Source of the DNA: Candidatus Collierbacteria bacterium
GTDB taxonomy: Bacteria > Patescibacteriota > Microgenomatia > UBA1400 > JACPES01
Length of the DNA stretch: 64,000 nt
Assembly (NCBI GenBank): GCA_016183365.1
Contig: JACPES010000003.1
Location: 269,051-333,050 of the forward strand
Reading direction: 5' to 3'
A model generated the notes under the pieces. The model was not told the origin of the DNA. It searched no databases and was given only the letters and a program-made list of their open reading frames with translations. This document shows, one piece after another, positions 10,451 to 62,011 of the stretch. Position 1 is the stretch's first letter, and every line of letters starts with the position of its first letter. Position numbers and translations under genes: made by a program.

Positions 10451-10468
10451 TCTTTTTCGTTAATGTCA

Positions 10469-10500
10469 TTAACTCTCCGCGGCCGCGTAGAGAAAAGAGC
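10469..10500 (+). promoter_or_regulatory. Conserved CCGCGGCCGCG-containing motif directly upstream of the argS ATG
   Basis: TTAACTCTCCGCGGCCGCGTAGAGAAAAGAGC. A near-identical copy lies at 44137..44170 upstream of another ATG, and related copies lie in the 44899/45897 direct repeats. Confidence 0.45.
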
Positions 10501-10511
10501 AAAAACAAAAT

Positions 10512-34476: not shown

Positions 34477-36766
34477 GAAATCTTTCAACCATTTAACCAT
34501 TCTAACCATTTTAACTTTTGTAGTCACCACAATATTTTACTTCAAGCCCATCTGGAAAAATAAGTTGATTCCTTTTCCAGGCCGCCTGCTGGTATCTTAT
34601 TTTAGCCCCTGGAAAGAAGAATCATGGCCCGAGTTTCCGACCGGAGTTCCGCGTAAAGGTCTATTGGGTTTTGATACCGCCAGAATGATGGGTTCCTGGC
34701 GCAGTTTTATTACAAACGAACTTAAACAAGGCAGATTGCCGACCTGGAACCCGCATCAGTTCGCCGGCGCCCCGCTTTTAGCCAATTTCCAATCGGCCAC
34801 TTTCTTTCCTCCCAATCTAATTTATCTCCTGCTTCCTTTTTCAATCGCCTGGACAATTTTAGTCATTTTTCAACCCTTGTTAGCAAGTTTTGGGATGTAT
34901 TTATTGCTTAAATCACAGTTTAAAGACAAAAACCTAATAACTAACAACCAAATACTAATAACTATTCTTCCTTCTCTCGCCTACGGTTTTTCCGCCTGGA
35001 TGTCTGTTTGGATAGAATGGAATATTCACGGTTTTGTTTACGCCCTGCTTCCATTTGTGCTCCTTTTTATCCATAAGAGAAAAGCCATTTTAATCATTTT
35101 AACCATTTCAGCCATTATTTTTGCCGGTCATCCGCAAATGGCCTTTATTGCCCTGACGGCTGCCGCGCTCTTTGCCGCGGTCAATCACCGTCTTAAAAAA
35201 TTTCTGTTGTCAGCCGCGGTCGCCCTTCTAATTACTTCTGTCCAGTGGATTCCCGCTGTTCGTTACTACCAAGAGGCCAGCCGGGAACAATCCTCAAGCG
35301 AATTTACTTACGAAAAAACTCTCTTACCGTGGGGCCAAATCTCGCAATTAATAGTTCCTAATTATCTGGGAAATTCCGCCACCGGAAATTTCCGCGGCCA
35401 AGCAAATTTTGTAGAAACCACCGCTTATTCAGGAATAGCAATTTTGGGATTTGCGATTATGGGATTGTTGGCAAGAAACAAGAAACAAGAAGTAAAATTT
35501 GCCGTTTTTCTCCTTCTGACAATTTTCCTTTTTGTTCTCCCCAACCCATTTTCATTTCTTGTAGGCAAACTCAACATCCCGATTCTTTCCACCAGCGTCG
35601 CCAGTCGCTGGCTGATGCTTTTGCCTCTGGCGGTAACTTTGTTAGCTGCCGCCGGTATCGACCGATTTATTGAACTAACTACATCAAACCCTACTAAAAA
35701 GGCCAGGCCTTTTCCGGAAAGGCCTGGCCTTTTCTCTCCCGCCGTTTTTGTTTTTATCCTAATAGCTGGTCTGTGGATATACGCTTTGCTATCTCCTTCT
35801 GAACTCCGTTCGGTTTCCATCCGCAATCTGATGATACCCAGCGCCATCGCCGGCTTATTCCTATTAACATTGTCATTCCGGACTGCCGACCCGCCTGCAA
35901 GCGCCTGGAGCGCTAGCGACTGGCGGGCAGGTCGGCAGTCTGTAATGAAGATTTTATTGTTTTCTTTGGTTGTTTTGTCTATCGGTGAGCTTATTTTATT
36001 CGGTTGGAAAACAATGCCGTACACTGAAAAAAATTTCGTTTATCCGGAGACTCCGGTGTTAGAAAAATTACAGGAGTTTTCCAAAGATGGTAGTAGATTT
36101 GCATCTACTGATGGCAGCGTAATCGAGTCAAATTTTGCCACTTATTATAAGTTATATGATTTATCAGGCTACGATGCTTTGTACCCGCGCAGAATCGGAG
36201 AATTGATTTGGGTAGCTCAAAATAAAGGGCAACCTGTAGCCGATTTTTCCCGGTCTACCGTGGTCACTCCCACCTCTCCTTCACTGACCAAAGATAATCT
36301 TTGGAACTTGGCCGGCGTCCGCTGGATCATCAATAAAGATGACCTGCTGTCAGAACATCCCGGCCAAAGATCTAATGATTTATCTCCCGACTTCAAACTT
36401 ATCTGGGAAGAAGGCAAGTGGCAAATCTACGAAAACCTTAACGCATTTCCTCGGGCTTTCTTTATTAAGAGTGGGGATTGGATTGGTGAGGGTGATGACG
36501 TGATTAGTAGCTCCTTAAATCTCTCAACCTCTTTAGTCTCCCTTATCACCCCGGCTAGAATTGTCTTCTATCAGCCGACAAAGGTGGCGATAGAGGTTAG
36601 CGCCCCAGCTGATGGTTATCTGGTATTAACCGATACTTTTTATCCCGGCTGGACGGCTACCGTTGATGGTCCTTTGGCGGAGATTGTTCCGGCGTTTCAT
36701 GCTTTTAGAGCCGTTCCGGTCTCTCAAGGAAATCATATTGTTAAGTTTAGTTACGGTTCTTTATAA
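34475..36766 (+). CDS. YfhO-like GT-C polytopic membrane protein (paralog of 56130 and 59927)
   Basis: Shared N-terminal pattern: …YFSPWKEE…GRLPTWNPHQFAGAPLLANFQSATFFPP…. Carries in-frame palindromes at 35697..35734 and 35872..35948 and a (CAAGAAA)3 repeat. Confidence 0.5.
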   Translation: MKSFNHLTILTILTFVVTTIFYFKPIWKNKLIPFPGRLLVSYFSPWKEESWPEFPTGVPRKGLLGFDTARMMGSWRSFITNELKQGRLPTWNPHQFAGAPLLANFQSATFFPPNLIYLLLPFSIAWTILVIFQPLLASFGMYLLLKSQFKDKNLITNNQILITILPSLAYGFSAWMSVWIEWNIHGFVYALLPFVLLFIHKRKAILIILTISAIIFAGHPQMAFIALTAAALFAAVNHRLKKFLLSAAVALLITSVQWIPAVRYYQEASREQSSSEFTYEKTLLPWGQISQLIVPNYLGNSATGNFRGQANFVETTAYSGIAILGFAIMGLLARNKKQEVKFAVFLLLTIFLFVLPNPFSFLVGKLNIPILSTSVASRWLMLLPLAVTLLAAAGIDRFIELTTSNPTKKARPFPERPGLFSPAVFVFILIAGLWIYALLSPSELRSVSIRNLMIPSAIAGLFLLTLSFRTADPPASAWSASDWRAGRQSVMKILLFSLVVLSIGELILFGWKTMPYTEKNFVYPETPVLEKLQEFSKDGSRFASTDGSVIESNFATYYKLYDLSGYDALYPRRIGELIWVAQNKGQPVADFSRSTVVTPTSPSLTKDNLWNLAGVRWIINKDDLLSEHPGQRSNDLSPDFKLIWEEGKWQIYENLNAFPRAFFIKSGDWIGEGDDVISSSLNLSTSLVSLITPARIVFYQPTKVAIEVSAPADGYLVLTDTFYPGWTATVDGPLAEIVPAFHAFRAVPVSQGNHIVKFSYGSL
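35697..35734. repeat. Near-perfect palindrome AAAAGGCCAGGCCTTTTCCGGAAAGGCCTGGCCTTTT, in frame in a CDS
   Basis: Member of the AAGGCCWGGCC family (see 52251, 52534, 57168). Encodes KKARPFPERPGLFS. Confidence 0.75.
35872..35948. repeat. GC-rich palindromic element GTCATTCCGGACTGCCGACCCGCC…GGCGGGCAGGTCGGCAGTC…TGTAATGA, in frame in a CDS
   Basis: Long imperfect stem. The 5' terminus is identical to the 22955 element. Encodes LSFRTADPPASAWSASDWRAGRQSVMK. Confidence 0.65.
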
Positions 36767-36773
36767 TTCTTTT

Positions 36774-37448
36774 ATGAAAATCTCAATTATTATCCCTGCT
36801 TTCAATGAAGGAAAAACTATTTCCAAAATAATTGAGTCTTTAAAAAAAGTTGATGGATTCCATAAAGAAATTATTGTGGTTGATGACGCGTCAACTGACG
36901 GAACATATAAAAAACTTCAAGATACTAAAGGAATAAAAGTTATCCGCCATCCAAAAAATTTAGGTAAAGGTTCGGCTATCAGAACCGGGATAAAGTCTTC
37001 CTCTGGCGATTATGTATTAGTCCAAGACGCCGATCTGGAGTACGATCCTCAAGACATACTGACCATGATAAAGCCTATTAACCAAGGGAAGGCGGAAGTC
37101 GTTTACGGGTCCAGATTTACCGGCTCGCGGCGCAATATGTTTTTTTGGCACTGGATGGGAAACCAGTTATTGACTCTGGTGACCAATATTCTCTATAACA
37201 CCACTCTTTCGGACATGGAAACTTGTTATAAATTAATTCCCTTGAAATTAATTAAATCGTTAAATTTGAGAGCTAAAAGGTTTGAATTTGAGCCGGAAGT
37301 GACCGTCAAGATTTTAAAAAGAGGCATCAGAATTTGGGAAGTCCCGATTTCCTATGCCGGCCGGGAATATCATGAGGGCAAGAAAATTACTTGGCGAGAT
37401 GGTATTCCGGCATTGTTTACATTACTAAAGTATCGTTTTGTGGATTGA
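36774..37448 (+). CDS. Family-2 glycosyltransferase (DPM-synthase-like)
   Basis: ATG at 36774. MKISIIIPAFNEGKTI…IVVDDASTDGT…VQDADLEYDP. Confidence 0.8.
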   Translation: MKISIIIPAFNEGKTISKIIESLKKVDGFHKEIIVVDDASTDGTYKKLQDTKGIKVIRHPKNLGKGSAIRTGIKSSSGDYVLVQDADLEYDPQDILTMIKPINQGKAEVVYGSRFTGSRRNMFFWHWMGNQLLTLVTNILYNTTLSDMETCYKLIPLKLIKSLNLRAKRFEFEPEVTVKILKRGIRIWEVPISYAGREYHEGKKITWRDGIPALFTLLKYRFVD

Positions 37449-37454
37449 AGGAAA

Positions 37455-38837
37455 ATGAACAAAAAACAAAAAACAAAAAACATCTTTGCTCTTTGCTCTT
37501 TGCTCTTTGCTCTTTTACCCCTATTCTGGAATCTCTTGCGTCCAGGTTTCTATTCTTCCGATGACGGCGAATGGATGGTAATTAGGTTAACCGCTTTTCA
37601 TGAATCTTTCCGCAAAGGGCAAATTCCGGTTAGGTGGTTGTCCAGATTAAATCATGAATATGGATATCCGGTAACTAATTTTCTTTATCCATTGCCATTT
37701 TATCTGGCTGAACCATTTTATGCGCTAACCAGGGATCCGGTTTTAGCCGTAAAAATAGTTATGGGATTGGCGATAGCCAGCATGGCTGTCGGATCATACG
37801 TTTTATTTAAAAAATGGGGAACAGCGGAGGGGATTATCGGTGCTTTAACATATTCTTATTCTCCATATGTAGTTTTTAATCTTTACCAGCGTGGTTCATT
37901 GGGAGAACTAGTGGCTATGGGAATAGTTCCATGGGTATTTTGGGCCATTTCTTCAAAAAAGCTGTTATTGTCATCGTTTTTTACCGCGGCATTAATAACA
38001 GCCCATAACGTGGTTGCCGCGCTTTTTTTGCCCCTAGTCGTGGTCTGTGTTTTGTGGAAATTTAAAACCAGAGCATGGTTTATGGTTCATGGTTTATGGT
38101 TTATGCTCGCTTTTGGCTTGAGCGCCTTCTTCTGGTTCCCGGCTTTGGCCGAGTACCGTTTTGTCCGGACATCTCAAATCGCGGTTTCGGATTTTAGTAA
38201 CGAATATCTTTCTTTACAAAATGCTTTTGAACGGACCGGACCAATCTCCGTTTTGACTAATTTTGGCTTGCCCTTGTTCTTTTTAACCGAAAATTCTAAA
38301 TGGTTTTGGAACTTATTCAAACCTTTGCAAATAATTCAGTTTCCCTGGAGATTATTAAATTTATTCTCTTTTATTTCTTCAGGAATTATTTCGTTTTTAA
38401 TTTTTAAATTAAAAAAATACCGCTTATTTCAATCTTTAATTATAATTTTTATAGCTGTTATAACATTTATTTCAGTTTTTCCCTTTCTGTCTCCAAAGTC
38501 TTTTACCAATTATCCTCCGAGCTATTATCAAACTAACGATGATAGTACCACGGTTAGAGCCGAATATACCCCGATCTGGGTAAATGATTGGCCTTTGGTT
38601 CGTCCGGAAACTCCCGTAAAACATTACTACCCCGGTCTAAAGTTGTTTGTGAACGGATCGGAAAAATTTGTTAATCCTGGTGAATATAACGGAGAGATAA
38701 GAAGTTCCGTTTTTGGCGAAGGCGGTAAGATCAAATTCATTTGGAGCGAGACGCCCTTGAGGGCAGCAACGGATTTAATATCAATTTTTAGTTTTTTGAT
38801 TATTTTATTTTTGTTTAAATATAGGTGGATAATATGA
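37455..38837 (+). CDS. Polytopic membrane protein (putative GT-C; paralog of 38834)
   Basis: The N-terminus is encoded by (AAAAAAC)3(TTTGCTC)4. GQIPVRWLSRLNHEYGYPVTNFLYPLPFY is conserved with the downstream paralog. Confidence 0.45.
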   Translation: MNKKQKTKNIFALCSLLFALLPLFWNLLRPGFYSSDDGEWMVIRLTAFHESFRKGQIPVRWLSRLNHEYGYPVTNFLYPLPFYLAEPFYALTRDPVLAVKIVMGLAIASMAVGSYVLFKKWGTAEGIIGALTYSYSPYVVFNLYQRGSLGELVAMGIVPWVFWAISSKKLLLSSFFTAALITAHNVVAALFLPLVVVCVLWKFKTRAWFMVHGLWFMLAFGLSAFFWFPALAEYRFVRTSQIAVSDFSNEYLSLQNAFERTGPISVLTNFGLPLFFLTENSKWFWNLFKPLQIIQFPWRLLNLFSFISSGIISFLIFKLKKYRLFQSLIIIFIAVITFISVFPFLSPKSFTNYPPSYYQTNDDSTTVRAEYTPIWVNDWPLVRPETPVKHYYPGLKLFVNGSEKFVNPGEYNGEIRSSVFGEGGKIKFIWSETPLRAATDLISIFSFLIILFLFKYRWII

Positions 38838-40357
38838 AGTTTATCCTTTTCATAATGTTGTTGAGTGTGCCTGCGGTCTGGCAAATCATCGCTCCTGGAT
38901 TTTTCCCGATGCACGACGATATCCAGGTGGCCAGAGTCGAGCAGATGTTTGTGGCTTTAAAATCAGGGCAGTTTCCTGTTCGTTGGGTGCCTGATTTAGG
39001 GTATGGCTACGGGTATCCGATTTTTAATTTTTATAATCCCTTAGCCTATTATTTTGGAGCGGCTTTTATGTTTTTAGGACTTGATGCTTTAGAGGCCACA
39101 AAATTGATGTTTATCTTTCCGGTTTTGGTATCGGGAATATCAATGTTTATATTTTCTAAACTTTTTTTATCCGATTTCGCTTCAGGATTTGCCGGATTAC
39201 TTTATGTTTATGCTGCATACCACGCGGTTCAAATCTACGTTAGGGGCGCGGTCGCCGAGTATTGGGCTTATGCCCTATTGCCGTTGGTTTTCTATGCCAT
39301 TTGGAAAAGAAAAATTATTTTTGCCGGACTAACTTTGGCTGCTTTAATCGCATCTCACAATCTTACTGCTTTTATGACTATTCCTTTTTTGGTGCTTTTA
39401 TTTTTATTTCGATATTTTAAAATATCGAAACTAAAAAATTTCAATAATGATAATTTAATCTTAATATTGTTTAGAGGAATGGTGCCATTGATGATTGGTT
39501 TAGGTTTGAGCGCCTTTTTTTGGCTACCATCTATTCTGGAATCTCCAAAAACCTTAGTTAGCCAAATGGTATTTGAAAAATTTGATCCCCCCTCAAAACA
39601 TGTGGTTTATCCATTACAACTATGGTCCGGAGTTTGGGGTTACGGCGGGTCATCTGCCGGAATTGATGATGGATTATCGTTTCAAATAGGTAAAATTCAT
39701 TTGATAGGAAGTCTTGCGGCAATTGCTATATTGCTATATTGTTATATTGTTAAACGAAAAGAAATTCAATTAACAATTGAGCAATTTAACAATTTAGCAA
39801 TTTTCTCTGTCGTCGGCTTAATACTTTCAGTATTTATCCTACTTCCTTTATCCCGGCCAATTTGGGATGCCTTTCCGGTCCTTTCCTATATCCAATTTCC
39901 CTGGCGCTTTCTGACGTTTGTTTCTCTATTTAGCTCTCTATTGACAGCTTGGGCGATTACAATGGTCTTGAACCTGATAGTAAAAAAAGAAGCCATGAAA
40001 AATGTAGCGTTCATTGCTTCTTGCTTCCTGCTTCTTGTTTCTTATATCAAATTCTTCCAACCCCAATTTAAATTTCCGGTTACAGCGGATGAACTAATTA
40101 CCCGGGAAAAACTGGTCTGGGATTATTCTAGGATCTCCTATGAATACTTGCCAAAGGGGTTTATTCCGCCCATAAACGCTGAAGTTGCCTTAAGAGTAGA
40201 TAATAAGCAGAATCAACTATTGGTCGACAGCCTAAAAGAGCAAACTATGGTTAGACGGGTTGCGAATATAATTAGCTTGTTCACGTTTATAACCTTTATA
40301 GCATTTGTTGTTGTTATTCCCTTTTGTAAGAAAAATGGACAAAATCTCTCAAGTTAA
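38834..40357 (+). CDS. Polytopic membrane protein (putative GT-C; paralog of 37455)
   Basis: GQFPVRWVPDLGYGYGYPIFNFYNPLAYY. ATG at 38834 (the ORF call from 38825 uses GTG). Confidence 0.45.
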   Translation: MKFILFIMLLSVPAVWQIIAPGFFPMHDDIQVARVEQMFVALKSGQFPVRWVPDLGYGYGYPIFNFYNPLAYYFGAAFMFLGLDALEATKLMFIFPVLVSGISMFIFSKLFLSDFASGFAGLLYVYAAYHAVQIYVRGAVAEYWAYALLPLVFYAIWKRKIIFAGLTLAALIASHNLTAFMTIPFLVLLFLFRYFKISKLKNFNNDNLILILFRGMVPLMIGLGLSAFFWLPSILESPKTLVSQMVFEKFDPPSKHVVYPLQLWSGVWGYGGSSAGIDDGLSFQIGKIHLIGSLAAIAILLYCYIVKRKEIQLTIEQFNNLAIFSVVGLILSVFILLPLSRPIWDAFPVLSYIQFPWRFLTFVSLFSSLLTAWAITMVLNLIVKKEAMKNVAFIASCFLLLVSYIKFFQPQFKFPVTADELITREKLVWDYSRISYEYLPKGFIPPINAEVALRVDNKQNQLLVDSLKEQTMVRRVANIISLFTFITFIAFVVVIPFCKKNGQNLSS

Positions 40358-41831
40358 GCAAAAAACAGTTAAAGGGTTGGTGGCCCTGATAGCCAGAACC
40401 GGTCTGCTGCAGGTTATAGCGGTTGTAGCGACATTTATTTTGACGGTATTTTTAGATCCAGCTCAATTTGGAGTTTTTGCGATCGTGGCCGCAGCAGTTG
40501 ACATTTTGGTTTATTTTTCAGATATCGGTTTAGCCGGAGCGTTGATCCAGAAGCAAGATATAAACGAAAAAGATCTGGCTACAACTTTTACGATTCAGCA
40601 GATATTAAGTTTGACTTTGTTGGGTCTTGGATTTTTAGCCGGCAGCTTGGTGGCTAATATTTACTCTCTTTCCTTAGCCGGAATTTGGTTGTTCAGAGCG
40701 TTATTGGTTTCAGTTTTTTTGTCAGGCTTGAAAACGATTCCCAGTGTTTTATTGGAAAGAAAACTTGATTTTATTAAAGTCGTTACCGTCCAGATTGCGG
40801 AAACATTAATTTTTTACGGACTGGCGGTATTTTTGGCGTGGAAAGGGTTTGGAGTATCCAGTTTTTCTTGGGCGGTTTTATTCAGGAGTGTCATTGGGTT
40901 GATAATGATTTATATTTTAGCGCCATGGAGACCGCGAATCGGGATTGACAGGATTTCATTCAAAAAACTGATATCGTTTGGAATGCCGTTTCAATTAAAT
41001 AGTCTTTTAGGTTTGGTAAAAGATCGGATGTTGGTGGCATATTACGGAGCGATTTTGTCTCCGGTTCATGTCGGGTATCTACAGTGGGCGGAAAGATGGT
41101 CTCTTTTCCCGTTGAGAATGGTGGTGGATAATGTCTCAAAGGTGACTTTTCCGGCTTATTCCAGACTGCAGGCAGAACGCGATCATTTAGTCAAAGCTAT
41201 TGAAAAATCAATTTTTTTTACCGGTCTTTTCATTTTCCCGATCTTAATAGGACTGATAGTTTTGGCTCCGACTGCCCTGGAAGTTATTCCCAAATATAAT
41301 AAATGGCAGCCGGCTCTTTTGGCTTTAGGTTTATTTTCCATAAATGCTATGTGGTCTTCAATTTCGACTACAATTACTAACGCGTTTGCGGCTATGGGGA
41401 AAATTAATATTAATTTGAAATTAATGTTAATGTGGACCGTGCTGACATGGATTTTGACTCCATTATTGATGTCTAAATACGGTTATAATGGCGTGGCCGC
41501 CGCTTCGGCTTTGGTAGCTTCATCTTCAATAATTCCGATGATAATCCTTAAAAGGATATTACCGATAAGGCTATTCTCGAATATCTGGCCGCAATTAATC
41601 AACGCGTTAATAATGGGGTTAATAATCCGTTATGTTAATTTAAAATTACCATTTACTATTTACTCTTTGCTATTTACCGTTCTCCTCGGTGCTATACTTT
41701 ATGGTGCGTTATTAATGGTTTTAATGCCTAAAAAACTGATAGCAGAAATAAAATCAGTCTGGTTGTTGTCATCCCGAGCGAAGCCAGGTACCGGCCGGAA
41801 CCTGGCGAAGTCGAGGGATCTAACGGAGTGA
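40335..41831 (+). CDS. Wzx-type oligosaccharide flippase (MOP superfamily polysaccharide biosynthesis protein)
   Basis: About 14 TM helices with a Wzx-like N-terminus (…LVALIARTGLLQVIAVVATFILTVFLDPAQFGVFAIVAAAVDILVYFSDIGLAGALIQ). The last 22 residues are encoded by the palindromic element at 41768..41832. Confidence 0.65.
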   Translation: MDKISQVKQKTVKGLVALIARTGLLQVIAVVATFILTVFLDPAQFGVFAIVAAAVDILVYFSDIGLAGALIQKQDINEKDLATTFTIQQILSLTLLGLGFLAGSLVANIYSLSLAGIWLFRALLVSVFLSGLKTIPSVLLERKLDFIKVVTVQIAETLIFYGLAVFLAWKGFGVSSFSWAVLFRSVIGLIMIYILAPWRPRIGIDRISFKKLISFGMPFQLNSLLGLVKDRMLVAYYGAILSPVHVGYLQWAERWSLFPLRMVVDNVSKVTFPAYSRLQAERDHLVKAIEKSIFFTGLFIFPILIGLIVLAPTALEVIPKYNKWQPALLALGLFSINAMWSSISTTITNAFAAMGKININLKLMLMWTVLTWILTPLLMSKYGYNGVAAASALVASSSIIPMIILKRILPIRLFSNIWPQLINALIMGLIIRYVNLKLPFTIYSLLFTVLLGAILYGALLMVLMPKKLIAEIKSVWLLSSRAKPGTGRNLAKSRDLTE

Positions 41832-43882: not shown

Positions 43883-43906
43883 ATTTATGAAGGGAAAAAT
43901 TGCGGT

Positions 43907-44130
43907 AACGGGGTGGAAAGATTGGATGAATGTTAAGGTTCTGCAAAAGGTAGTTATTGTGGACGAGATAGATAATATTTTGCTTCAAATTCTCATTTTT
44001 GACTATTTGCTATCAGGCTAAAGTTAAAGGAATTTCTCCAAATGTGGTTTTAAGCCAAGAATATGCCGAATACCGCTGGCTCTCAAAATCAGAAGCGCTA
44101 TCGCTCAATTCAATTCCTATCTTTTTAATC
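43907..44130 (+). pseudogene. Possible NUDIX hydrolase remnant (frameshifted fragments)
   Basis: Frame 1: MKGKIAVTGWKDWMNVKVLQKVVIVDEIDNILLQIL. Another frame: …SQEYAEYRWLSKSEALSLNSIPI, which is a NUDIX C-terminal-like pattern. No intact ORF. Weak evidence. Confidence 0.25.
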
Positions 44131-44136
44131 TTTGCT

Positions 44137-44170
44137 TTTAACTCTACGCGGCCGCGGATAGAAAAGAGCA
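44137..44170 (+). promoter_or_regulatory. Second copy of the TTAACTCT-CGCGGCCGCG-TAGAAAAGAGCA motif, abutting the ATG at 44172
   Basis: Near-identical to 10469..10500 upstream of argS. Confidence 0.45.
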
Positions 44171-44171
44171 T

Positions 44172-44873
44172 ATGACTTATCAAAAACTCCAAAAAGAACT
44201 GTTTGATCGGATTGAAATTCAGGCTAAAATCGGCAATTCTTCAAATACTCTAGTTGCAATGCGAAATTTTGATAATGACAATAGCCGGTGTTTAACCTCA
44301 GTATTTTTTCTGTCTCAAACTAAGGTTGTGTCAGAAATACAAAAATTTACAGAAGAACTACAGGTTGCTGATAACAGGCAATATTATTATCCAGTCTTTT
44401 CGCTTCATATAACTATCCAAAACATTAGAAATGAAAACATTCAGCCTTTATTCAATCAAGAAGATATTGATATGACCAAGCAGGTTTTTGCAAAAATCAT
44501 TCCGAAACATAAACCAATTAAATGCCATTTGAAAGGGTTATTTGAATTGCCGACAAGCATATCTATTAGAGGATATACAGATGAATCTCTGAAAGATTTG
44601 GTTTTAGACTTAAAGAGAGAACTGATTTCTGTTGGAGTTCCTGACAATAAAAAATATGCTTCCGATTCGATATTTTTCTGCAACAGCACCATCTGTCGTT
44701 ACCAAGTTCAACCTAATGATAAATTTTTCGAGATTGTCAGACGGAACAAGAATCGGGATTTCGATGCCGTTGACATCAATGAGGTCAGTTTGATGACTAC
44801 AAATGCGGTTGCTGATCAGAAATACACCAACATTATTAACAGTATCCCCTTAGCTTCCCCTAATTTCTTTTAG
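44172..44873 (+). CDS. Hypothetical protein (single HxTx motif reminiscent of 2H phosphoesterases)
   Basis: 233 aa. …YYYPVFSLHITIQNI… has one H-x-T-x motif, and a second could not be found, so no family is assigned. Confidence 0.5.
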   Translation: MTYQKLQKELFDRIEIQAKIGNSSNTLVAMRNFDNDNSRCLTSVFFLSQTKVVSEIQKFTEELQVADNRQYYYPVFSLHITIQNIRNENIQPLFNQEDIDMTKQVFAKIIPKHKPIKCHLKGLFELPTSISIRGYTDESLKDLVLDLKRELISVGVPDNKKYASDSIFFCNSTICRYQVQPNDKFFEIVRRNKNRDFDAVDINEVSLMTTNAVADQKYTNIINSIPLASPNFF

Positions 44874-44898
44874 TTCCATTATTTTCGCTTGACTACTA

Positions 44899-44980
44899 TT
44901 CTTTTCCATCCGCGGCCGCGGACTCAAAAGAGTAAAAGTTAATCTTAACTTACAGCGGCCGCGGGGAGTTATTGACATTA
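44899..44980 (+). repeat. 82-bp direct repeat, copy 1: CCGCGGCCGCGG - 33 nt AT-rich - CGGCCGCGG - TTATTGACA
   Basis: Nearly identical (1-2 mismatches) to 45897..45978. Ends in a TTGACA -35-like hexamer, about 58 nt upstream of the paaX-like ATG. Confidence 0.8.
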
Positions 44981-45034
44981 GTTATTCTTTTAATTAGAGT
45001 AATTTGATTAGAGTAATAAATTCAAACCTTTTTT

Positions 45035-45865
45035 ATGGCACGTAGTCGAACTACATCCAAATTGATTTCTAGGCTTACCGGTGAGTTGGCCGTTACGACC
45101 TTGGATTTCGTGGTACTATCTGCTGCTTTGGCCGGTGGGATGATTCTATACGGACCTAGTGGAAAAGATTTATACGCCAGCCAAAAAACCCAAAGAGCTC
45201 TGAAAATGACGGGATTAATGTACAAAAAATGGGACGAATCGGCTTTCCGCCGTGCAGTTGGTCGGGCAGCCGGCGAAGGATTGGTTAAACGAATTACAGA
45301 TGGCTTTAAATTGACAGGGTCAGGTAAAAAGCGGTTGAAGGAATTATTACCGTCGTATAAACAACCCAAACCTTGGGATGAAAAATTGTGGTTGGTGACC
45401 TATGACATTCCGGAAGACAAGCGTTACATTCGTGATCGCTTTCGCAATTGGCTGTTTGAAATCGGCTGTCGAATGATCCAGGAATCAGTATGGCTATCAG
45501 TCAAAGATCCAAAACCTTGGATTAAAGATTCGATAGCATCAATGGAAAAGGGAAATATCATCGTATCGTGTTTGGGTAAGGATGGAAGTATCGGGAATGA
45601 GAATTTAAACGAACTGATTTATCGCGTGTTTGAATTAAAACGATTGAACAAGGCATATAAAAGTTGGTTGCAAGCAGTAAATCAACAAAGTAGTAAATCA
45701 ACAGTATTGAGTTTAGGTTTTAGATTTTTATCTCTTTTGCGTCAAGATCCAATGTTTCCGAAAGATCTACTGCCTCAAGATTGGGCGGGCAACAAAGCCA
45801 GGAGAATCTTCGAGACAGAAATCGAGTCTGAAATGGGTGCGATCAAAATATACTTGCAAAAATAA
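45035..45865 (+). CDS. PaaX-family transcriptional regulator
   Basis: WDEKLWLVTYDIPEDKRYIRDRFRNWLFEIGCRMIQESVWLS and DPMFPKDLLPQDWAGNKARRIF match the PaaX middle and C-terminal domains (compare E. coli PaaX WDGKWLLLL… / DPLLPEELLPAHWAGHTARQL). Confidence 0.8.
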   Translation: MARSRTTSKLISRLTGELAVTTLDFVVLSAALAGGMILYGPSGKDLYASQKTQRALKMTGLMYKKWDESAFRRAVGRAAGEGLVKRITDGFKLTGSGKKRLKELLPSYKQPKPWDEKLWLVTYDIPEDKRYIRDRFRNWLFEIGCRMIQESVWLSVKDPKPWIKDSIASMEKGNIIVSCLGKDGSIGNENLNELIYRVFELKRLNKAYKSWLQAVNQQSSKSTVLSLGFRFLSLLRQDPMFPKDLLPQDWAGNKARRIFETEIESEMGAIKIYLQK

Positions 45866-45896
45866 TTTCTCCTAAAACTTGATTGAGAAAAATTTG

Positions 45897-45978
45897 TTCT
45901 TTTCCATCCGCGGCCGCGGACTCAAAAGAGTAAAAGTTAATCTTAACTTCCAGCGGCCGCGGGGAGTTATTGACACTA
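45897..45978 (+). repeat. 82-bp direct repeat, copy 2 (promoter/operator-like module upstream of larE)
   Basis: See copy 1. TTGACA at 45970-45975 lies about 64 nt upstream of the larE ATG. Confidence 0.8.
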
Positions 45979-46038
45979 ATACTAATTAATAGAATTCATC
46001 AAAAGGGATTTATCAGTCGTTGTATACTCACTGTTGTC

Positions 46039-46851
46039 ATGATGCAGGAAAGCCGTTCATTGAAACAAAAAGAAACACTATTGAAAGAGCTATTTTCGGA
46101 AATGAGGAGCGTTGTCGTTGCCCTATCTGCTGGAGTGGATTCATCGCTTACGCTTGCGGTGGCGCATGATGTATTAAAAGAAAAAGCAGTTGCAGCAGTT
46201 GCGATATCTCCCAGTCTATCTCAGGACAATGTAAAACTTGCAAGAAGAGTCGCGAAACTTATTGGGGCTGAGCTTATAGAAATTGAAACTCATGAGGTCG
46301 AGGATCCGGAGTACCAGAAGAATAATCCGCTGCGATGCTATTTTTGTAAGCATATTGTCTATTCGGAGTTGAAAAAAATCGCGGAGCAAAAACACGCTTT
46401 TCTTGTCGATGGTTTTAACACTGACGATACTGCGGAAACGAGACCAGGCATGCGGGCAGCAAAAGAAGAACGAGTCAGACATCCGCTTTTTGAAGCAGGA
46501 TTAACCAAAAAAGACGTGCGGTCTCTGGCTGGAAAATACGGGTTGCCGAACTGGAATAAGGCTGCCGATGCGTGTTTATCGTCCCGATTCTTAACCGGCA
46601 TTCCGGTAAATCCCCGCTTGGTGAAGCGCATTGAAGGACTGGAGTCGGTAGTGCGCCGCATCCTACAATTGGGAGCAGAACATACATTACGCGTCCGGCA
46701 TCTTGGAGATCAAGAAGCTCGAGTTGAAGTCAATTCTGAGTTGTTTCCAATTCCGGTCAGACTTGAGAAAAAAGTGAAAAATGTTGTCGAGTCATTTGGA
46801 TATCGCGAGATTTCATTTGCCGTTTACAGATGGGGGAGTGCCAGTGGTTAA
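46039..46851 (+). CDS. larE: LarE-family PP-loop ATP pyrophosphatase (sacrificial sulfur transferase for nickel-pincer cofactor synthesis)
   Basis: PP-loop ALSAGVDSS and the LarE-typical NPLRCYFCK motif. About 270 aa from the ATG at 46039. Higher G+C than surrounding genes. Confidence 0.75.
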   Translation: MMQESRSLKQKETLLKELFSEMRSVVVALSAGVDSSLTLAVAHDVLKEKAVAAVAISPSLSQDNVKLARRVAKLIGAELIEIETHEVEDPEYQKNNPLRCYFCKHIVYSELKKIAEQKHAFLVDGFNTDDTAETRPGMRAAKEERVRHPLFEAGLTKKDVRSLAGKYGLPNWNKAADACLSSRFLTGIPVNPRLVKRIEGLESVVRRILQLGAEHTLRVRHLGDQEARVEVNSELFPIPVRLEKKVKNVVESFGYREISFAVYRWGSASG

Positions 46852-47373
46852 ACGAGTCGTTAATATCATTGAAAATCTCGGTTTTGCTCAAATTGATCAC
46901 GGCCGTTTCGAACGGACCGGAATTCCCGAAGTGGTTTTTTGCGAAGGGAAAACGCCGGAACAGGTTGCGGAGATTTTCTCAAGGCTGGCCGCGACCAGTG
47001 GATTCGCCATGGCGACACGGGTGAAGCCCCGACACCAGAAAGTTATTCAAAAGAAAGTTCCCGAAACCGTATGGCATGAACGGGCTGGCATTATGACTAT
47101 GTTGTAGTTGTGACCGCGGGGACAGGAGATATTTCGGTTGCGGAAGAGGCAAAGGTGACATTAGAGTTTTTTGGCATTCGGGCAGAGAAACTTTGCTGAC
47201 TTCTTGTCTGGTTATTGGCGTCCCGACGGCAATCGGATACGGGATGGGGCGAGGCGGAAAAACGGCTCTTCGCACAATGCTCGATTCTTGTGTTCCCGGG
47301 ATGGTGGCAGTTAATATTGACAACGGATTCGGAGCCGCGTGCGCGGTGATGAGAATGTGGAAAAACTAGAAAA
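46781..47373 (+). pseudogene. larB: larB (pyridinium-3,5-biscarboxylic acid mononucleotide synthase), frameshifted with an internal deletion
   Basis: LarB-like pieces lie in three different frames: …VVNIIENLGFAQIDHGRFERTGIPEVVFCEGKTPEQV…ATRV; [24 protein letters not shown]; [48 protein letters not shown]. The conserved DVGVAGIHRL…IVVAGMEGALP segment is missing. Confidence 0.65.
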
Positions 47374-47375
47374 TC

Positions 47376-47546
47376 ATGAAAATAGGGTATTTCGATTGTA
47401 TCGGCGGGGCAAGCGGCGACATGATTTTAGGGTCTTTGATTGATGTCGGCCTCCCTATCGCGGTTTTGAAAAGAGAACTTGAAAAACTTCCAATTCAAGG
47501 TTGGACATTAAACGCAAAAAATCCGAGTAAAAGTGGCAAGATATGA
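47376..47546 (+). pseudogene. larC: larC (nickel insertion protein), N-terminal fragment only
   Basis: MKIGYFDCIGGASGDMILGSLIDVGLPIAVLKRELEKLPIQGWTLNAKNPSKSGKI, then stop. LarC normally exceeds 400 aa and the remainder is absent or frameshifted. Confidence 0.55.
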
Positions 47547-47626
47547 AGGAAAAATTGTTCGCGCCTTGCCGGAATACGATGATTGCAAAAAAACTGCAGC
47601 GGAGAAAAAAGTGTCGATTCAAACAG

Positions 47627-48700
47627 TTATTGATAGTGTAAGAGATATCGTTCTTTCCACATTATTCCATAATTAGTTTTCATCATACGCCTAACGTTTT
47701 TGATGCCTACAGTTGCGTACCAGATGTCGTAATACACTTTAGCCGCCCAACGGAGAAGGAATAAAAATGGCGATTTAACGTCGAACATCAGCCATTCCAT
47801 CCATTTTCCGCGATGCCTTAACCACATTTCAGTAGCCATGACGATATTCGACTGATTAGCCTGTTCGAATTTGAACTGGGGAAGTTTATCTCCGACAACT
47901 TCGGTCTTCATAGATCCAACTCCGACTTGTTGTGCAAAAGTAATATGCTTGACGGTTTTCGGGTCTATCCCCATAACTCTTGAGGCTACCGTATCCAACG
48001 CCACCCGGTCCGGCGAAGCAAAAATATATCCGATTTTACGAGGTTTTCCGGTTTTAGGGCCTTTGCCCTCCATTCCAAACAAGCCGTCCATTAAAGCAAA
48101 AGTAATTTTGCCTTTGAAGAAATTGTTGACGTCGGCGATGGCCTGATGCAGAACCATATGGAAATTATGCCGCAGGTCATGGATGCATCCCCATTGATTT
48201 TTTAAAGCTCCGGTCATTGAGGAATACGAATGAGTTTTTAAAACCGGCATGGTGATGATCGTATCGGCATCAAGGAGCACTTTGCTGATTTTGAGATGAT
48301 GGAGAACCAGCGCTTTTTCAAATGACACAACACGAAATTCCGTGTGAGAAAGATTGACAACGGTCGCATCATACTTTTTTACCATATCTTCAATTCCCTG
48401 AACTTTAAACGATATATCCGCCCGCATAATTGCGGCTGTATCGGTATCCACGATAGTAATTTTTTTCGGTCGGTATTTTTTAGACGCTTTGATTACTTTT
48501 AAAACACCTTCAATCACAATTGGAGTAGTGGTGCAGGAAGGATAAATCGTGTCCCAAACCACATTGACTTTTAAAACCAAATTTTTCCCCTTCATGTATT
48601 TTTCCCATTGGGCCAATATCATGGCTTTTTCGACAGCCTTAAAGACGACTTGAGGATTAGTAGATTTATCGTCGACTTTGACGCAAGAAACGAGAGACAC
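47627..48700 (-). CDS. DUF362-family protein, possibly LarA-like (NPN-cofactor enzyme superfamily)
   Basis: 357 aa. The PVLKTHSYSSMTGALKN segment resembles the LarA PHFFAGFSGGRK region around the cofactor-binding lysine. Assignment is tentative, but adjacency to larE/B/C supports it. Confidence 0.5.
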   Translation of the reverse strand: MSLVSCVKVDDKSTNPQVVFKAVEKAMILAQWEKYMKGKNLVLKVNVVWDTIYPSCTTTPIVIEGVLKVIKASKKYRPKKITIVDTDTAAIMRADISFKVQGIEDMVKKYDATVVNLSHTEFRVVSFEKALVLHHLKISKVLLDADTIITMPVLKTHSYSSMTGALKNQWGCIHDLRHNFHMVLHQAIADVNNFFKGKITFALMDGLFGMEGKGPKTGKPRKIGYIFASPDRVALDTVASRVMGIDPKTVKHITFAQQVGVGSMKTEVVGDKLPQFKFEQANQSNIVMATEMWLRHRGKWMEWLMFDVKSPFLFLLRWAAKVYYDIWYATVGIKNVRRMMKTNYGIMWKERYLLHYQ

Positions 48701-48776
48701 AATAATAAATGGTTATAATGGTTAATAAATGGTTTAAATGATTGAGATCTTAATTTTTTTAGCCATTTTAACCATT

Positions 48777-49532
48777 CTAACCATTTTGACCATTTTGTCT
48801 ATATTCCGGGTGTCCGGTTAATTTTTTCATTCTTTCTGTTATCATGATTCTTAAATATTTCGGCACCGACTGAAAAATTGTTAATTTTGATTGTCCTTCA
48901 CCGCGGCGCTCGTATTGGATGGGAATTTCACCGACTTTGTATCCGTGGAGGTGAAATTTTATCGGGATTTCGGTGTGAATTTCAAACCAACCGCTTTTTA
49001 AGTTTAATTTTTTAAGAGCGGACGCTCTCATGATTCTATAGCCGCTGCTGGCATCATGAAGCGGATAACCGGTAGTAAGTTTGGCGGCTAAAACGCAAGC
49101 TTGCGATAATAATAGACGAAAAGCCGGACCGTCCATCGATCCTCCGGAAACGAAGCGGCTGCCGATAACCATGTCATAGCCTTTGTTTGCGGCGGAGATA
49201 AAATCCGGAATTTCCTCCGGTCGGTGAGATAGGTCGGTATCCATGGTGATAATCCATTTGCCGCGGGCAACGGCAAATCCGGCTCTTTCGGCGTTCCCCG
49301 GTCCATTATTGGAATAGCGGTGAATGACTTTAATCTGTGGGAATTCATCCGATAGTTTGTCCAGAATTTTCCCGGTATTATCCGAGCTGACGTCATCAAT
49401 GGCGATAATTTCATAAGAAAGTCGGTTGCTTGTGGCCATTTTGATAATTCTGGATATAAAAGAGAGGATATTTCCTTCTTCATTGTGAGCCGGAGTAACT
49501 ATGGAATATTTAATGTCTTTAGTCTTTGGCAT
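48777..49532 (-). CDS. Family-2 glycosyltransferase (DPM-synthase-like)
   Basis: YSIVTPAHNEEGNI…IIAIDDVSSDNT…TMDTDLSHRP. The C-terminus is encoded by CCATTTT-type tandem repeats. Confidence 0.78.
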   Translation of the reverse strand: MPKTKDIKYSIVTPAHNEEGNILSFISRIIKMATSNRLSYEIIAIDDVSSDNTGKILDKLSDEFPQIKVIHRYSNNGPGNAERAGFAVARGKWIITMDTDLSHRPEEIPDFISAANKGYDMVIGSRFVSGGSMDGPAFRLLLSQACVLAAKLTTGYPLHDASSGYRIMRASALKKLNLKSGWFEIHTEIPIKFHLHGYKVGEIPIQYERRGEGQSKLTIFQSVPKYLRIMITERMKKLTGHPEYRQNGQNG

Positions 49533-59930: not shown

Positions 59931-62011
59931 AAATATTAAATTTGGTTCGAAATTTAATAGCTTATGTCATTCCAGCGATCCTTCGACAAGCTCAGGATGG
60001 TGAGCACCGTCGAACCAAAGCTGGAATCTATTTAAATAGTAGTTCCGCCAAAGGCGGAATGACAATGGTGATTTTGATTGTACTATCTTTGTCTTTTTTC
60101 TGGCCTGTATGGTTTAAGGGAAAACTGCCGATTCCGGCCGATGCTTTAGTCGGATTGTATCACCCGTTCCGAGATTATTACGCGGCTGATTTTCCGAATG
60201 GGGTCCCGTTTAAAAATTATATTTTGACTGATCCGGTATTGCAGCAGTACCCGTGGAAATGGTTAGCTATAAATCAGTTAGGGAGTATCCTTAAAGGAGT
60301 CTCCTTTAAGGATACTCCCTTGTTGGAAAATCCTTATTCTTTTGGCGGTTACGGAGCCAGTTCAATAGAAAATATTCAGGCGGGGACATTTTATCCGCTG
60401 AACATCCTTTTTTTTCTTATCAATAATTTTTCCGCGGCATGGACGGTTTTTATCATCCTTCAGTCAATCTTGGCTTCATTATTTATGTACTGGTGGCTTA
60501 AAGAAAATTCCTTAAAAAATTCGGCAGCGATTTTTGGCGGGTTAGTTTGGGCGTTTTCTTCTTTCAATTTGGTCTGGCTGGAGTGGGGGAATATTGGACA
60601 TGCCGGACTGTGGTTGCCATTGGCACTATTGTGTGTTGACAAAATGCAAAAAACAAAAAACAAAAAACAAAAAACCTGGAAATGGCATGCGATTCTGCAA
60701 TTTGTACTATCAAGCAGCCTTTTTGCCGGACATTTGCAAGTGACGCTTTATCTACTGATGGCTGTGGCGCTGTATTGGTTTATCCGGCTGGGTATTTCGA
60801 AACGATCTATTTCATTGTTTCTTGTTTTTTGTTTCTTGTTTCTTGCCCTTACGTCCATTCAATGGATTCCATCACTGAAATTTACTCTCTCATCAAATCG
60901 TGAAGTCGAGCAACAGGATGCTCTTACCCGCGAAGGGTTTTTCATTCGTCCCCATCAGTTAGTTCAAATGATAAGTCCGGATTTTTTTGGCAACCCGTCG
61001 ACTTTGAATTATCGCGGCGCTTGGAATTATGCCGAACAGGTAATTTATATCGGAATCATTCCTTTACTATTTGTTCTTTTAGGCGTTCTCACCAAAAACT
61101 CTCAAAAAAATGATGTAGATTCGATATGCTATAGCTTATCGAATCTACATCTACATAGGTTTTGTTGGTCGCTGATAATTATCGGTTTGTTGTTCGCGAC
61201 TGACAATCCGATTTCGCGTTTGCCTTATCAATTAAAGCTGCCATTAATTTCTGATCTGCAACCGACAAGATTATCTTATTTGATTACTTTCGGACTATCT
61301 TCCCTTTCGGCTTTTGGTCTCAACGAGTTTATTAAAAATCCCCGGAAATTATTCTCAAAAGTTATAACCATCGTTGTCGTCTTTACCGTTTTGCTGTTTG
61401 CCCTATTAATAATTAGCAGTAAACTTTCACCGGAAGATAAATTAATTTCCCAACGCAACTTAATATGGCCAGTAACGCTTTTGATTTTATTTTATATTTT
61501 AAGTGGATTGTTCTACTTGTTTGAGAACAAAAAACAAAAAACAAAAAACAAAAAACTTCAGCTCTTTGCTCTTTGCTCTTTGCTTTTTGTCATTTCCGAT
61601 CTCTTCCGTTTCGGCTGGAAATTTACTCCGTTCTCTCCAAAAGAATATTTGTATCCCATAACTCCTGCCATAAAATTTTTGCAAAACAATATTCGGGAAA
61701 ACGACAGATATATGACTTTAGACCGCCGCATTTTACCTCCGAATGCAAATATAATTTATGAATTGAAATCAATCGAAGGTTACGATCCAATTTATTCGAA
61801 ACAATACGCGTTGTTAATAGGAGAGATGGAATCCGGGGAAGTAGCCGATAAGCCGCAGAGTTTTGGTCGGATTATCAGGCCTATAAACTATAAATCCCCG
61901 ATTACTGCTCTTTTGGGAGTCCGTTACGCGCTTAGTCTGTCTGATCTTGAAGAGGAGAGGTGGGTTAAGGTTTTTCAAGAAGGGAAAACTAGAATCTATG
62001 AAAGACGGTAG
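59927..62011 (+). CDS. YfhO-like GT-C polytopic membrane protein (paralog of 34475/56130); start uncertain
   Basis: The ORF call uses GTG at 59927. Alternative ATGs at 60059 and 60065 lie at the end of the 59966..60063 repeat element. Carries (AAAAAAC)4 ×2, (TTTGCTC)3 and (TTTCTTG)4 arrays and a perfect 39-bp palindrome. Confidence 0.5.
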   Translation: MKILNLVRNLIAYVIPAILRQAQDGEHRRTKAGIYLNSSSAKGGMTMVILIVLSLSFFWPVWFKGKLPIPADALVGLYHPFRDYYAADFPNGVPFKNYILTDPVLQQYPWKWLAINQLGSILKGVSFKDTPLLENPYSFGGYGASSIENIQAGTFYPLNILFFLINNFSAAWTVFIILQSILASLFMYWWLKENSLKNSAAIFGGLVWAFSSFNLVWLEWGNIGHAGLWLPLALLCVDKMQKTKNKKQKTWKWHAILQFVLSSSLFAGHLQVTLYLLMAVALYWFIRLGISKRSISLFLVFCFLFLALTSIQWIPSLKFTLSSNREVEQQDALTREGFFIRPHQLVQMISPDFFGNPSTLNYRGAWNYAEQVIYIGIIPLLFVLLGVLTKNSQKNDVDSICYSLSNLHLHRFCWSLIIIGLLFATDNPISRLPYQLKLPLISDLQPTRLSYLITFGLSSLSAFGLNEFIKNPRKLFSKVITIVVVFTVLLFALLIISSKLSPEDKLISQRNLIWPVTLLILFYILSGLFYLFENKKQKTKNKKLQLFALCSLLFVISDLFRFGWKFTPFSPKEYLYPITPAIKFLQNNIRENDRYMTLDRRILPPNANIIYELKSIEGYDPIYSKQYALLIGEMESGEVADKPQSFGRIIRPINYKSPITALLGVRYALSLSDLEEERWVKVFQEGKTRIYERR
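59966..60063. repeat. Full-length GC-rich palindromic element GTCATTCCAGCGA … GGCGGAATGAC at the 5' end of a GT-C gene
   Basis: Long-range stem ATTCCAGC/GCTGGAAT plus a TTCCGCCAAAGGCGGAA hairpin. Translated in frame if the GTG start is used (…VIPAILRQAQDGEHRRTKAGIYLNSSSAKGGMTM…). Confidence 0.7.
60281..60319. repeat. Perfect 39-bp palindrome GGGAGTATCCTTAAAGGAG-T-CTCCTTTAAGGATACTCCC inside a CDS
   Basis: 19-bp arms checked by hand. Encodes GSILKGVSFKDTPL. The core AAAGGAGTCTCCTTT recurs at 52832..52846. Confidence 0.88.

Follow-up and report, generated by a model that had tools for sequence, protein, structure and literature searches.

What are the two near-identical repeats that bracket a regulator gene in a 64,000-nt stretch of a Candidatus Collierbacteria genome (contig JACPES010000003.1; the whole stretch is hereafter called the window), and why do they stand on both sides of the same gene? 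The gene, at 45035-45865, encodes a PaaX-like protein, and each of the 82-nt repeats contains two palindromes centred on the GC-rich sequence GCGGCCGC. We consider the GCGGCCGC-centred palindromes to be probably (at a rough probability of 0.7) the cognate operators of the PaaX-family repressor that this gene encodes. The layout of a gene with its own palindromic sites on both sides recurs in about half of the family in uncultured Patescibacteria, also known as the candidate phyla radiation (CPR), and appears to be undescribed so far; in the literature searched, no paper linking PaaX with Cas2, Patescibacteria or the candidate phyla radiation was found. The arrangement consists of the following features.

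44899..44980, + strand: upstream 82-nt module with the palindromic sites O1 and O2, centres 43 bp apart; its 3' end is the -35 box of the paaX-like promoter
45035..45865, + strand: PaaX-like regulator gene, 276 aa, with an N-terminal winged-helix region, a Cas2-like central domain with an invariant YDI, and PaaX_C
45897..45978, + strand: downstream 82-nt module with the O1 core at 45910-45917, the O2 core at 45953-45960 and TTGACA at 45970-45975, 3' of the paaX stop codon and 5' of the larE promoter

The two copies form a direct repeat of 98% identity at an offset of 998 nt, bracketing the open reading frame (ORF) 45035-45865, and differ by two mismatches (A/C at 44952/45950 and T/C at 44978/45976), in agreement with the 1-2 nt reported by a first-pass annotation of this DNA. 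Their common layout is TTCTTTTCCAT-CCGCGGCCGCGG-ACTCAAAAGAGTA-AAAGTTAATCT-TAACT-T(A/C)CA-GCGGCCGC-GGGG-AGTTA-TTGACA, which comprises two palindromes of ~38 bp lying 43 bp apart, the second of them overlapping the TTGACA -35 box. The internal anatomy and the hexamer positions given by the same annotation were also borne out: CCGCGGCCGCGG lies at 44910-44921 and GCGGCCGCGG at 44955-44964, and TTGACA is found at 44972-44977, 57 nt before the paaX-like ATG (45035), and at 45970-45975, 63 nt before the larE ATG (46039). Both copies are present with their diagnostic variants in independent Logan assemblies (one study, with contigs that break within the repeat), so the repeat is real and not an assembly artefact: contig L010 spans the upstream copy and has its A/T variants, contig L002 begins within the downstream copy and has its C/C variants, and contig L001 (1005 bp, 11 samples) extends from repeat to repeat.

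The octamer GCGGCCGC occurs six times in the window compared to 0.74 expected, a number reached in 0 of 100 shuffles, and all six occurrences are intergenic: each 82-mer contributes two, a fifth is at 44148, 20 nt upstream of the ATG at 44172, and the sixth, at 10479, precedes the argS start codon (ATG at 10512). The extended pattern CGCGGCCGCG-N5-AAAAGAG, allowing up to three mismatches, gave 7 matches in the window against 0.13 expected. No degenerate copies (up to three mismatches, plus an arms-only pattern) were found in the window outside these four loci. A search of genome contigs with the same CGCGGCCGCG-N5-AAAAGAG pattern returned at least 118 single chance matches in unrelated genomes and was uninformative, the pattern being too permissive. 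The individual sites, including the two shorter relatives of the motif that had been proposed before argS and the 44172 gene and that are indeed present there, are as follows.

44897..44934, no strand: upstream O1, with arms TATTCTTTT (44897-44905) and AAAAGAGTA (44926-44934) matching at 8 of 9 positions, core CCGCGGCCGCGG (44910-44921), dyad at 44915/44916
44946..44977, no strand: upstream O2, reading TAACT (44946-44950), N4, GCGGCCGC (44955-44962), N4, AGTTA (44967-44971), then TTGACA (44972-44977), the -35 box
44995..45000, + strand: -10-like hexamer TAGAGT, 17 nt after TTGACA, 10/12 promoter match
44133..44170, no strand: single-core site before the 2H/AKAP7-like gene (ATG 44172), reading TGCTTTTAA-TAACT...GCGGCCGC (44148-44155)...AAAAGAGCA (44162-44170)
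10469..10501, no strand: single-core site 11 nt before the argS ATG (10512), reading TTAACTCTC-CGCGGCCGCG-TAGAG-AAAAGAGCA, with a displaced left arm GCTCTTTT at 10449-10456

The arms of O1 are at offsets 11-19 from the GG/CC dyad, as in the family profile described below, and recur around different cores in two relatives, L139 and L219. The O2 arms TAACT/AGTTA are at offsets 9-13, with the right side continuing into TTGACA, so that the promoter TTGACA-17-TAGAGT overlaps the right arm; AGTTATTGACATTAGT of this site is identical in L146, a homolog at 45% protein identity. The spacing of 43 bp between O1 and O2 corresponds to about four helical turns. In both single-core sites, the left half is of the O2 type (TTAACT) and the right half of the O1 type (AAAAGAGCA), in exact register, and the site before the 2H-like gene is kept with identical ATG spacing in L137 and L220, which are relatives at 78% identity. 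Three smaller observations concern these sites. Between the -35 box and the paaX-like ATG there is a 14-nt tandem duplication (44989-45016, TTTAATTAGAGTAA / TTTGATTAGAGTAA), resulting in two -10-like TAGAGT boxes. A 109-aa ORF (10211-10540) continues across the 10469-10501 palindrome into the start of argS; judged by eye, it seems to end like an aminotransferase-type C-terminus extended or disrupted by the element. A further palindrome match at 41773-41816 (listed at 41794), CCAGGTACCGGCCGGAACCTGG, is a GC-rich hairpin in the last codons of the ORF 40305-41831 whose core and arms both differ, and it was placed outside the site family.

The same arrangement was then found around homologous genes. 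A library clustered at 50% identity contains 185 representatives of the family (E ≤ 1e-30), and a metagenome scan with the family alignment provided 80 homolog loci at 29-63% identity, in which start codons were set by a simple rule; some of these loci are near-duplicates, and later counts refer to 64 non-redundant loci. When the 300 nt upstream and the 300 nt downstream of each homolog were compared (score ≥ 15; shuffled mean ~9), a shared segment was found for 35 of 67 testable homologs compared to 1 of 81 other genes of the same loci (Mann-Whitney p = 6e-17), and this segment was almost always a 38-46-nt palindrome. A palindrome detector blind to flank similarity gave a site within 200 nt upstream in 38/76 loci, at -25 to +200 from the stop codon in 43/76 and on both flanks in 28/76, with 57 matches in the remaining ~366 kb (20 in shuffled sequence). 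After locus-specific rescanning, the 55 non-redundant loci with both flanks available were divided into 32 with both sites, 2 with the upstream site only, 3 with the downstream site only and 18 with none. Distal copies are sparse, about six in 208 kb of homolog loci; the window has four loci in 64 kb, and the local copy density is ~1 per 30-35 kb. The 88 neighbours of the homologs are unrelated housekeeping or unknown genes without any conserved partner family. One locus, L175, has its palindrome in five consecutive intergenic regions (752, 2253, 2892, 3807 and 4666) around a single PaaX-like gene, three of them near-identical over ~46 nt, and these palindromes separate small ORFs without a Pfam match; a smaller version of this run is seen in the window (44151, 44915/44958 and 45913/45956).

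Over 81 distinct sites, base pairing across the dyad was 1.0-0.72 at offsets 1-6, at background (0.36-0.38) at offsets 8-10, 0.77-0.86 at offsets 13-19 and again at background beyond 25. The family element is thus a tripartite palindrome, in which a GC-rich core of 8 bp is separated by a free spacer from arms at offsets 13-19. The core is GCGGCCGC in 36 sites, ACGGCCGT in 13, GCACGTGC in 10 and ACTCGAGT in 7, with few others, and the arms are AT-rich and lineage-specific. All copies within a locus have one core, and both core type and arm sequence track the protein tree (for instance, a GCACGTGC clade and a ACTCGAGT clade). Escherichia coli PaaX binds TGATTC(N27)GAATCA and represses its own promoter Px (review, PMC9493321); the N27 spacing puts its half-sites at offsets 14-19, the same place as the arms here. 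The long-spaced dyad of PaaX operators (~39 bp, half-sites ~27 bp apart) would therefore be matched by the family element, in geometry only. According to the same 2022 review, no structure of a PaaX-DNA complex had been reported by then.

The upstream copies are built into promoters. On the gene strand, the core is immediately preceded by TTGAC in 11 of 31 non-redundant upstream sites compared to 1 of 39 downstream sites, and in those 11 the core is in the -35/-10 spacer, with a -10-like hexamer ~17 nt after TTGAC. This is the classical layout of autorepression, as predicted from sequence, and it is in line with the first-pass suggestion that the module is a putative operator of the PaaX-like protein: across the family, the promoters of homologs carry lineage-specific palindromes built in this way, and the geometry fits the E. 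coli PaaX site. In 6 of the 11 (L150, L172, L185, L186, L191 and L195, with TTGAC(A/T)), the ATG follows the -10-like hexamer by 6-10 nt, indicating that these PaaX-like regulator genes appear to be transcribed as leaderless mRNAs. Relative to the stop codon, the downstream copies are at -25 to +60. Such a copy is present in 21 of 28 loci with a co-directional next gene and in 11 of 21 loci with a convergent one, and the sites before convergent genes indicate that the next gene's promoter cannot be their sole purpose. In relative orientation, the flanking copies are direct in 16 cases (as in the window), inverted in 7 and ambiguous in 5, a mixture that symmetric protein sites would be expected to show, unlike transposon ends or att sites.

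The enclosed protein has the three-domain architecture of PaaX, that is, a winged helix, a Cas2-like dimerisation domain and a helical PaaX_C. Pfam matches were obtained for PaaX_M, the central Cas2-like domain (E = 1e-12), and PaaX_C (E = 1.1e-7), and a profile of 19 family members matched the E. coli PaaX structure 8a39 over residues 70-259 (E = 7.6e-8). The AlphaFold model (mean pLDDT 73, low confidence in the N-terminal 110 residues) was matched best in Foldseek by 8a39 (5e-7) and Rv0674 (3kfw), with many Cas2 structures next in rank; residues 20-93 are modelled as H-H-H-beta-beta at a pLDDT of only 55-70. The protein shares family and fold with E. coli and Pseudomonas PaaX, and the palindromic sites share with the PaaX operator the ~39-bp dyad, half-sites at offsets ~13-19 and overlap with the regulator's own promoter. 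However, it is not an orthologue of PaaX, since it scored 56.2 bits in TIGR02277 (phenylacetate PaaX equivalog) against a cut-off of 264.55, and no paa catabolic genes were found among its neighbours in the window (glycosylation genes, the 2H-like gene and lar genes) or among the 88 neighbours of homologs. The present system differs further in the extra 8-bp GC-rich central palindrome, in the second site at the 3' end of the gene, in a promoter that is often leaderless, and in retaining the metal-binding Asp of Cas2 (YDI), which is invariant across the family and absent from E. coli PaaX.

The Cas2-like domain has also given the protein its database name. An NCBI protein from Candidatus Collierbacteria that is 100% identical to it, encoded on a 588-kb contig, is called 'CRISPR-associated endonuclease Cas2', and TIGR01573 (Cas2) indeed scored 29 bits, over a cut-off of 24.5, from the central domain. 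Cas2 of CRISPR-Cas adaptation has the same ferredoxin-like fold and YDI motif, but it is a small stand-alone protein accompanied by cas1 and an array, whereas the present protein has 276 aa with flanking winged helix-turn-helix (wHTH) and PaaX_C domains. No regularly spaced repeat array was seen in the window, and cas1 was absent from the best 25 families listed for the window ORFs and likewise from those for the homologs' neighbours. Because the central domain passes TIGR01573 with neither cas1 nor a CRISPR array nearby, the name looks like a domain-level misannotation, which the present assignment corrects for these proteins. A defence-system reading was considered as well and set aside, as PADLOC returned Cas2 domain matches only.

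From these results, the following scheme can be proposed. The PaaX-like protein would dimerise through its Cas2-like domain and place its two winged-helix domains on the AT-rich arms ~32 bp apart, like E. coli PaaX on TGATTC-N27-GAATCA, while the 8-bp GC-rich centre may serve as a further specificity element. In the upstream 82-mer, two such sites would lie on the same face of the helix, and since O2 overlaps the -35 box, we propose that the protein shuts off its own promoter. The 3' site or module may act as an auxiliary operator, either as a loop partner of the promoter site or as a roadblock insulating the regulator gene from its neighbours, and ahead of a co-directional gene it may in addition be an operator lying 5' of the promoter of that gene. 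The 3' module of the present genome is a recent copy of the 5' module, made either by duplication or by gene conversion that began at a single, older site, and a small regulon would include the single-core sites preceding the 2H-like gene and argS as well. As with the repressors that use auxiliary operators and looping (lac O1/O3, gal OE/OI and deo), at least two identical dyad sites hundreds of bp apart would be bound by one repressor; in the present case, however, the sites bracket the repressor's own coding sequence, ~0.9 kb apart, and the loop is a putative one.

Several observations weigh against the operator assignment. The 8-bp central core is without counterpart in the described E. coli PaaX site, and it switches among close relatives with the same arms, being GCGGCCGC in the window, GCTGGAGC in L219 (86% protein identity) and GCTCGAGC in L139 (63%). 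The arms of O2 and of the two single-core sites are unlike those of O1, so one specificity does not obviously cover all six cores. By the detector, 18 of 55 loci are without a GC-core palindrome, yet several of these 18 (L135, L138 and L143) have other flanking palindromes. The role of the 3' site before convergent genes (11/21 loci) is unexplained by classical repression, and all support for the assignment is comparative. A second PaaX-like gene, which might account for the O2-type arms, was not found in the 64-kb window. Regarding the switch itself, the arms CTCTTTT...AAAAGAG and AGTTATTGACA are kept around the switched cores (L219 3146-3340, L139 ~876-920 and window 44897-44934), the GCTGGAGC core of L219 is not a perfect palindrome, and the protein differences between close pairs are spread along the sequence, with no clear hotspot in any region tracking the core.

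If the palindromes are operators, they would provide predicted protein-operator pairs for a whole regulator family in the CPR/Patescibacteria, whose tiny genomes encode few regulators that can be recognised and in which hardly any regulatory site has been defined by experiment, and promoter, leaderless start and operator could be read directly from metagenomic DNA. The conserved arms with exchanged cores would constitute a natural specificity-switch series, usable to learn how PaaX-type dimers read DNA. The recurrent second site at the 3' end of the regulator's own gene, an unusual layout, would, if functional, point to looping or roadblock insulation in very compact genomes. A PaaX-type repressor/operator system as such is known; what is new would be the tripartite operator, the often leaderless promoters and the recurrent operator pair around the regulator's own gene.

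The alternative with the most in its favour is a selfish or mobile cassette, in which the PaaX/Cas2-fold gene and its flanking palindromes move or persist as a unit, as REP/RAYT systems or the hairpin ends of IS200/IS605 do, and the protein binds and perhaps cuts at the GC-rich cores. The tendency of loci to have sites on both flanks or on neither (32 and 18 loci, against 2 upstream only and 3 downstream only) is what such a unit would show, as are the highly variable genomic context, with no conserved partner gene and random orientation of neighbours, the few copies elsewhere in the genome, the sites in consecutive intergenic regions of the window and L175, and the invariance of the Cas2 metal-binding Asp that E. 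coli PaaX is lacking. In REP/RAYT systems (REPINs), too, short palindromic repeats stand on either side of a single gene and are found in further intergenic positions. In those systems the flanking palindromes are inverted and tens to hundreds of dispersed copies are found genome-wide, whereas here the flanking copies are not consistently inverted (16 direct, 7 inverted and 5 ambiguous), the upstream copy is part of a promoter and the local density is ~1 per 30-35 kb. The presence of a promoter in the upstream copies and not in the downstream ones is an asymmetry that fits regulation and not transposon ends. The fold is that of a transcription factor, with only PaaX and Cas2 folds returned by Pfam, PDB and Foldseek, and has neither an HUH Y1 (IS200/IS605-like) transposase nor a DDE, tyrosine or serine recombinase domain. 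Moreover, the PaaX-like gene keeps a stable position beside the 2H-like gene in relatives at 78-86% identity, no second gene copy was seen in the 64 kb, and we found neither relatives on viral contigs nor an empty-site/occupied-site pair. The first-pass idea of a mobile cassette bounded by the repeats thus gained no positive support, with orientation not fixed, no recombinase or transposase seen and no viral matches, and we regard it as unlikely.

A related and equally unlikely proposition is that the wHTH-Cas2-PaaX_C proteins of CPR are DNA-acting modules and not ordinary repressors, which would bind the palindromes at both gene ends and loop out, cut or recombine the segment between them via the Cas2-type acidic site. 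If this were true, it would define a new self-bounded selfish or mobilisable cassette or a new autoregulatory topology, and the fast concerted switching of cores would represent a changed target specificity.

Next to be weighed is an action at the RNA level, in which the palindromes would be transcript hairpins unlinked to the PaaX-like protein, serving the preceding genes as 3'-end terminators, processing sites or stabilisers. Each 82-mer begins 26-32 nt past a stop codon, the 82-mer RNA folds to -34.5 kcal/mol (z = -4.7), and the downstream copies of the family are, as given above, close to stop codons. Against this, no T-tract follows the downstream sites (mean 3.9 T in the next 12 nt, with ≥7 T in 10% of sites), offsets 8-10 are unpaired, and GCGGCCGC is unable to close a stable loop. 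Within the promoter of the gene itself the same lineage-specific sequence is present, and the enrichment is confined to the flanks of this gene family (1/81 control genes). Intrinsic terminators were considered in particular and dismissed, as none was called at the 82-mers and the downstream sites were without T enrichment. The covariance models of Rfam 15 had no match at E ≤ 1 in 43900-46200. Taken together, we find this explanation highly improbable.

The least credible alternative is that the GC-rich cores are recognition sites for restriction-modification (R-M) or methylation and that a shared core reflects epigenetic marking in place of regulator specificity, since the resemblance of the 8-bp perfect palindromes to rare-cutter sites (GCGGCCGC, GCGATCGC, CTCGAG, CACGTG and CGTACG) and their uniformity within a locus, with switching between close relatives that have the same arms, are countered by the facts that any GC-rich palindrome fits some enzyme's site, that no R-M genes adjoin the homolog loci and that the cores occur only inside larger arm-bearing palindromes at the flanks of this gene.

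Returning to the operator reading, we compared relatives for the history of the second 82-mer in the window. L219 (86% identity), in which the gene order is 2H-like, PaaX-like, larE-larB fusion and larC, has a two-unit module upstream with conserved arms and GCTGGAGC cores, and no element between paaX and larE was found; in L220 (78%) there was none downstream either, and L137 (78%) has a single O1-like site downstream of the paaX-like gene. When the two intergenic regions of the window were aligned, identity was 80/82 within the module and collapsed with indels immediately outside. Because the downstream module is lacking in L219 and L220 and the identity ends sharply at the module edge, the second module is either a copy made recently in this lineage or a tract of gene conversion that started from an older single site. 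Both mismatches between the 82-mers are at positions unconstrained in the family profile, one in the spacer and the other just past an arm. The spacer between TTGACA and the -10 hexamer TAGAAT is 14 nt in the second copy compared to 17 nt in the first, and judging from this sequence the TTGACA-bearing promoter part of the second copy is decayed and the operator part alone kept intact.

Whether the second module co-regulates the downstream lar genes, as had been proposed, can be judged from two further features.

46039..46851, + strand: larE (ATP-dependent sacrificial sulfur transferase), intact, TIGR00268 249 bits against a cut-off of 150
46021..46028, + strand: TGTATACT, an extended -10-like box of larE's own promoter region; the stretch TTTATCAGTCGTTGTATACTCA is conserved in L219

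The promoter-like stretch TTTATCAGTCGTTGTATACTCA is 3' of the second 82-mer and common to the window and L219. In the window, larB is frameshifted, with residues 9-72 at ~46895-47086 and residues 159-215 at ~47196-47366 in different frames, and larC keeps residues 1-54 and 341-383 only, ~285 codons having been lost compared to the syntenic relative L137; both genes are intact in L137 and L219 (in L219 as the larE-larB fusion followed by larC). The lar operon is therefore decaying in this genome (span 46852-47650), with larE intact. The part of the proposal that saw a promoter/operator module in the repeat is well supported by the comparison with homologs, whereas the purpose given to its duplication does not: the bracket is not a one-off for lar, as the 3' site is family-wide and usually without a -35 box. 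Co-regulation is doubtful also in view of the element missing between paaX and larE in L219, the extended -10 promoter that larE has of its own and the broken larB and larC. It is unproven, since larB and larC are pseudogenes here and L219 is without the element, and we retain co-regulation of the lar genes by the second module as possible, if weakly supported.

Upstream, the neighbour of the paaX-like gene is the 2H/AKAP7-like gene, for which the match is weak. The window as a whole is largely a cell-envelope glycosylation island, with seven GT2 glycosyltransferases, six PMT_2 proteins, sugar dehydratases/epimerases, a polysaccharide synthesis protein and BacA; two GIY-YIG proteins, RmuC and a RhuM-family gene are also encoded. 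Short tandem repeats are found at the gene boundaries 26141-26178, 28045-28096, 37444-37529 and 61531-61602, and also at 34482-34519, 35088-35116 and 48748-48803. One set consists of 7-nt units (TTTACTC, TTTGCTC and AACAAAA) and another of a 9-nt unit (TTTTAACCA), and they could be coding low-complexity sequence or contingency repeats. The 9-nt repeat (TTTTAACCA) is also present just 5' of the PaaX-like gene in L138 (5774-5920).

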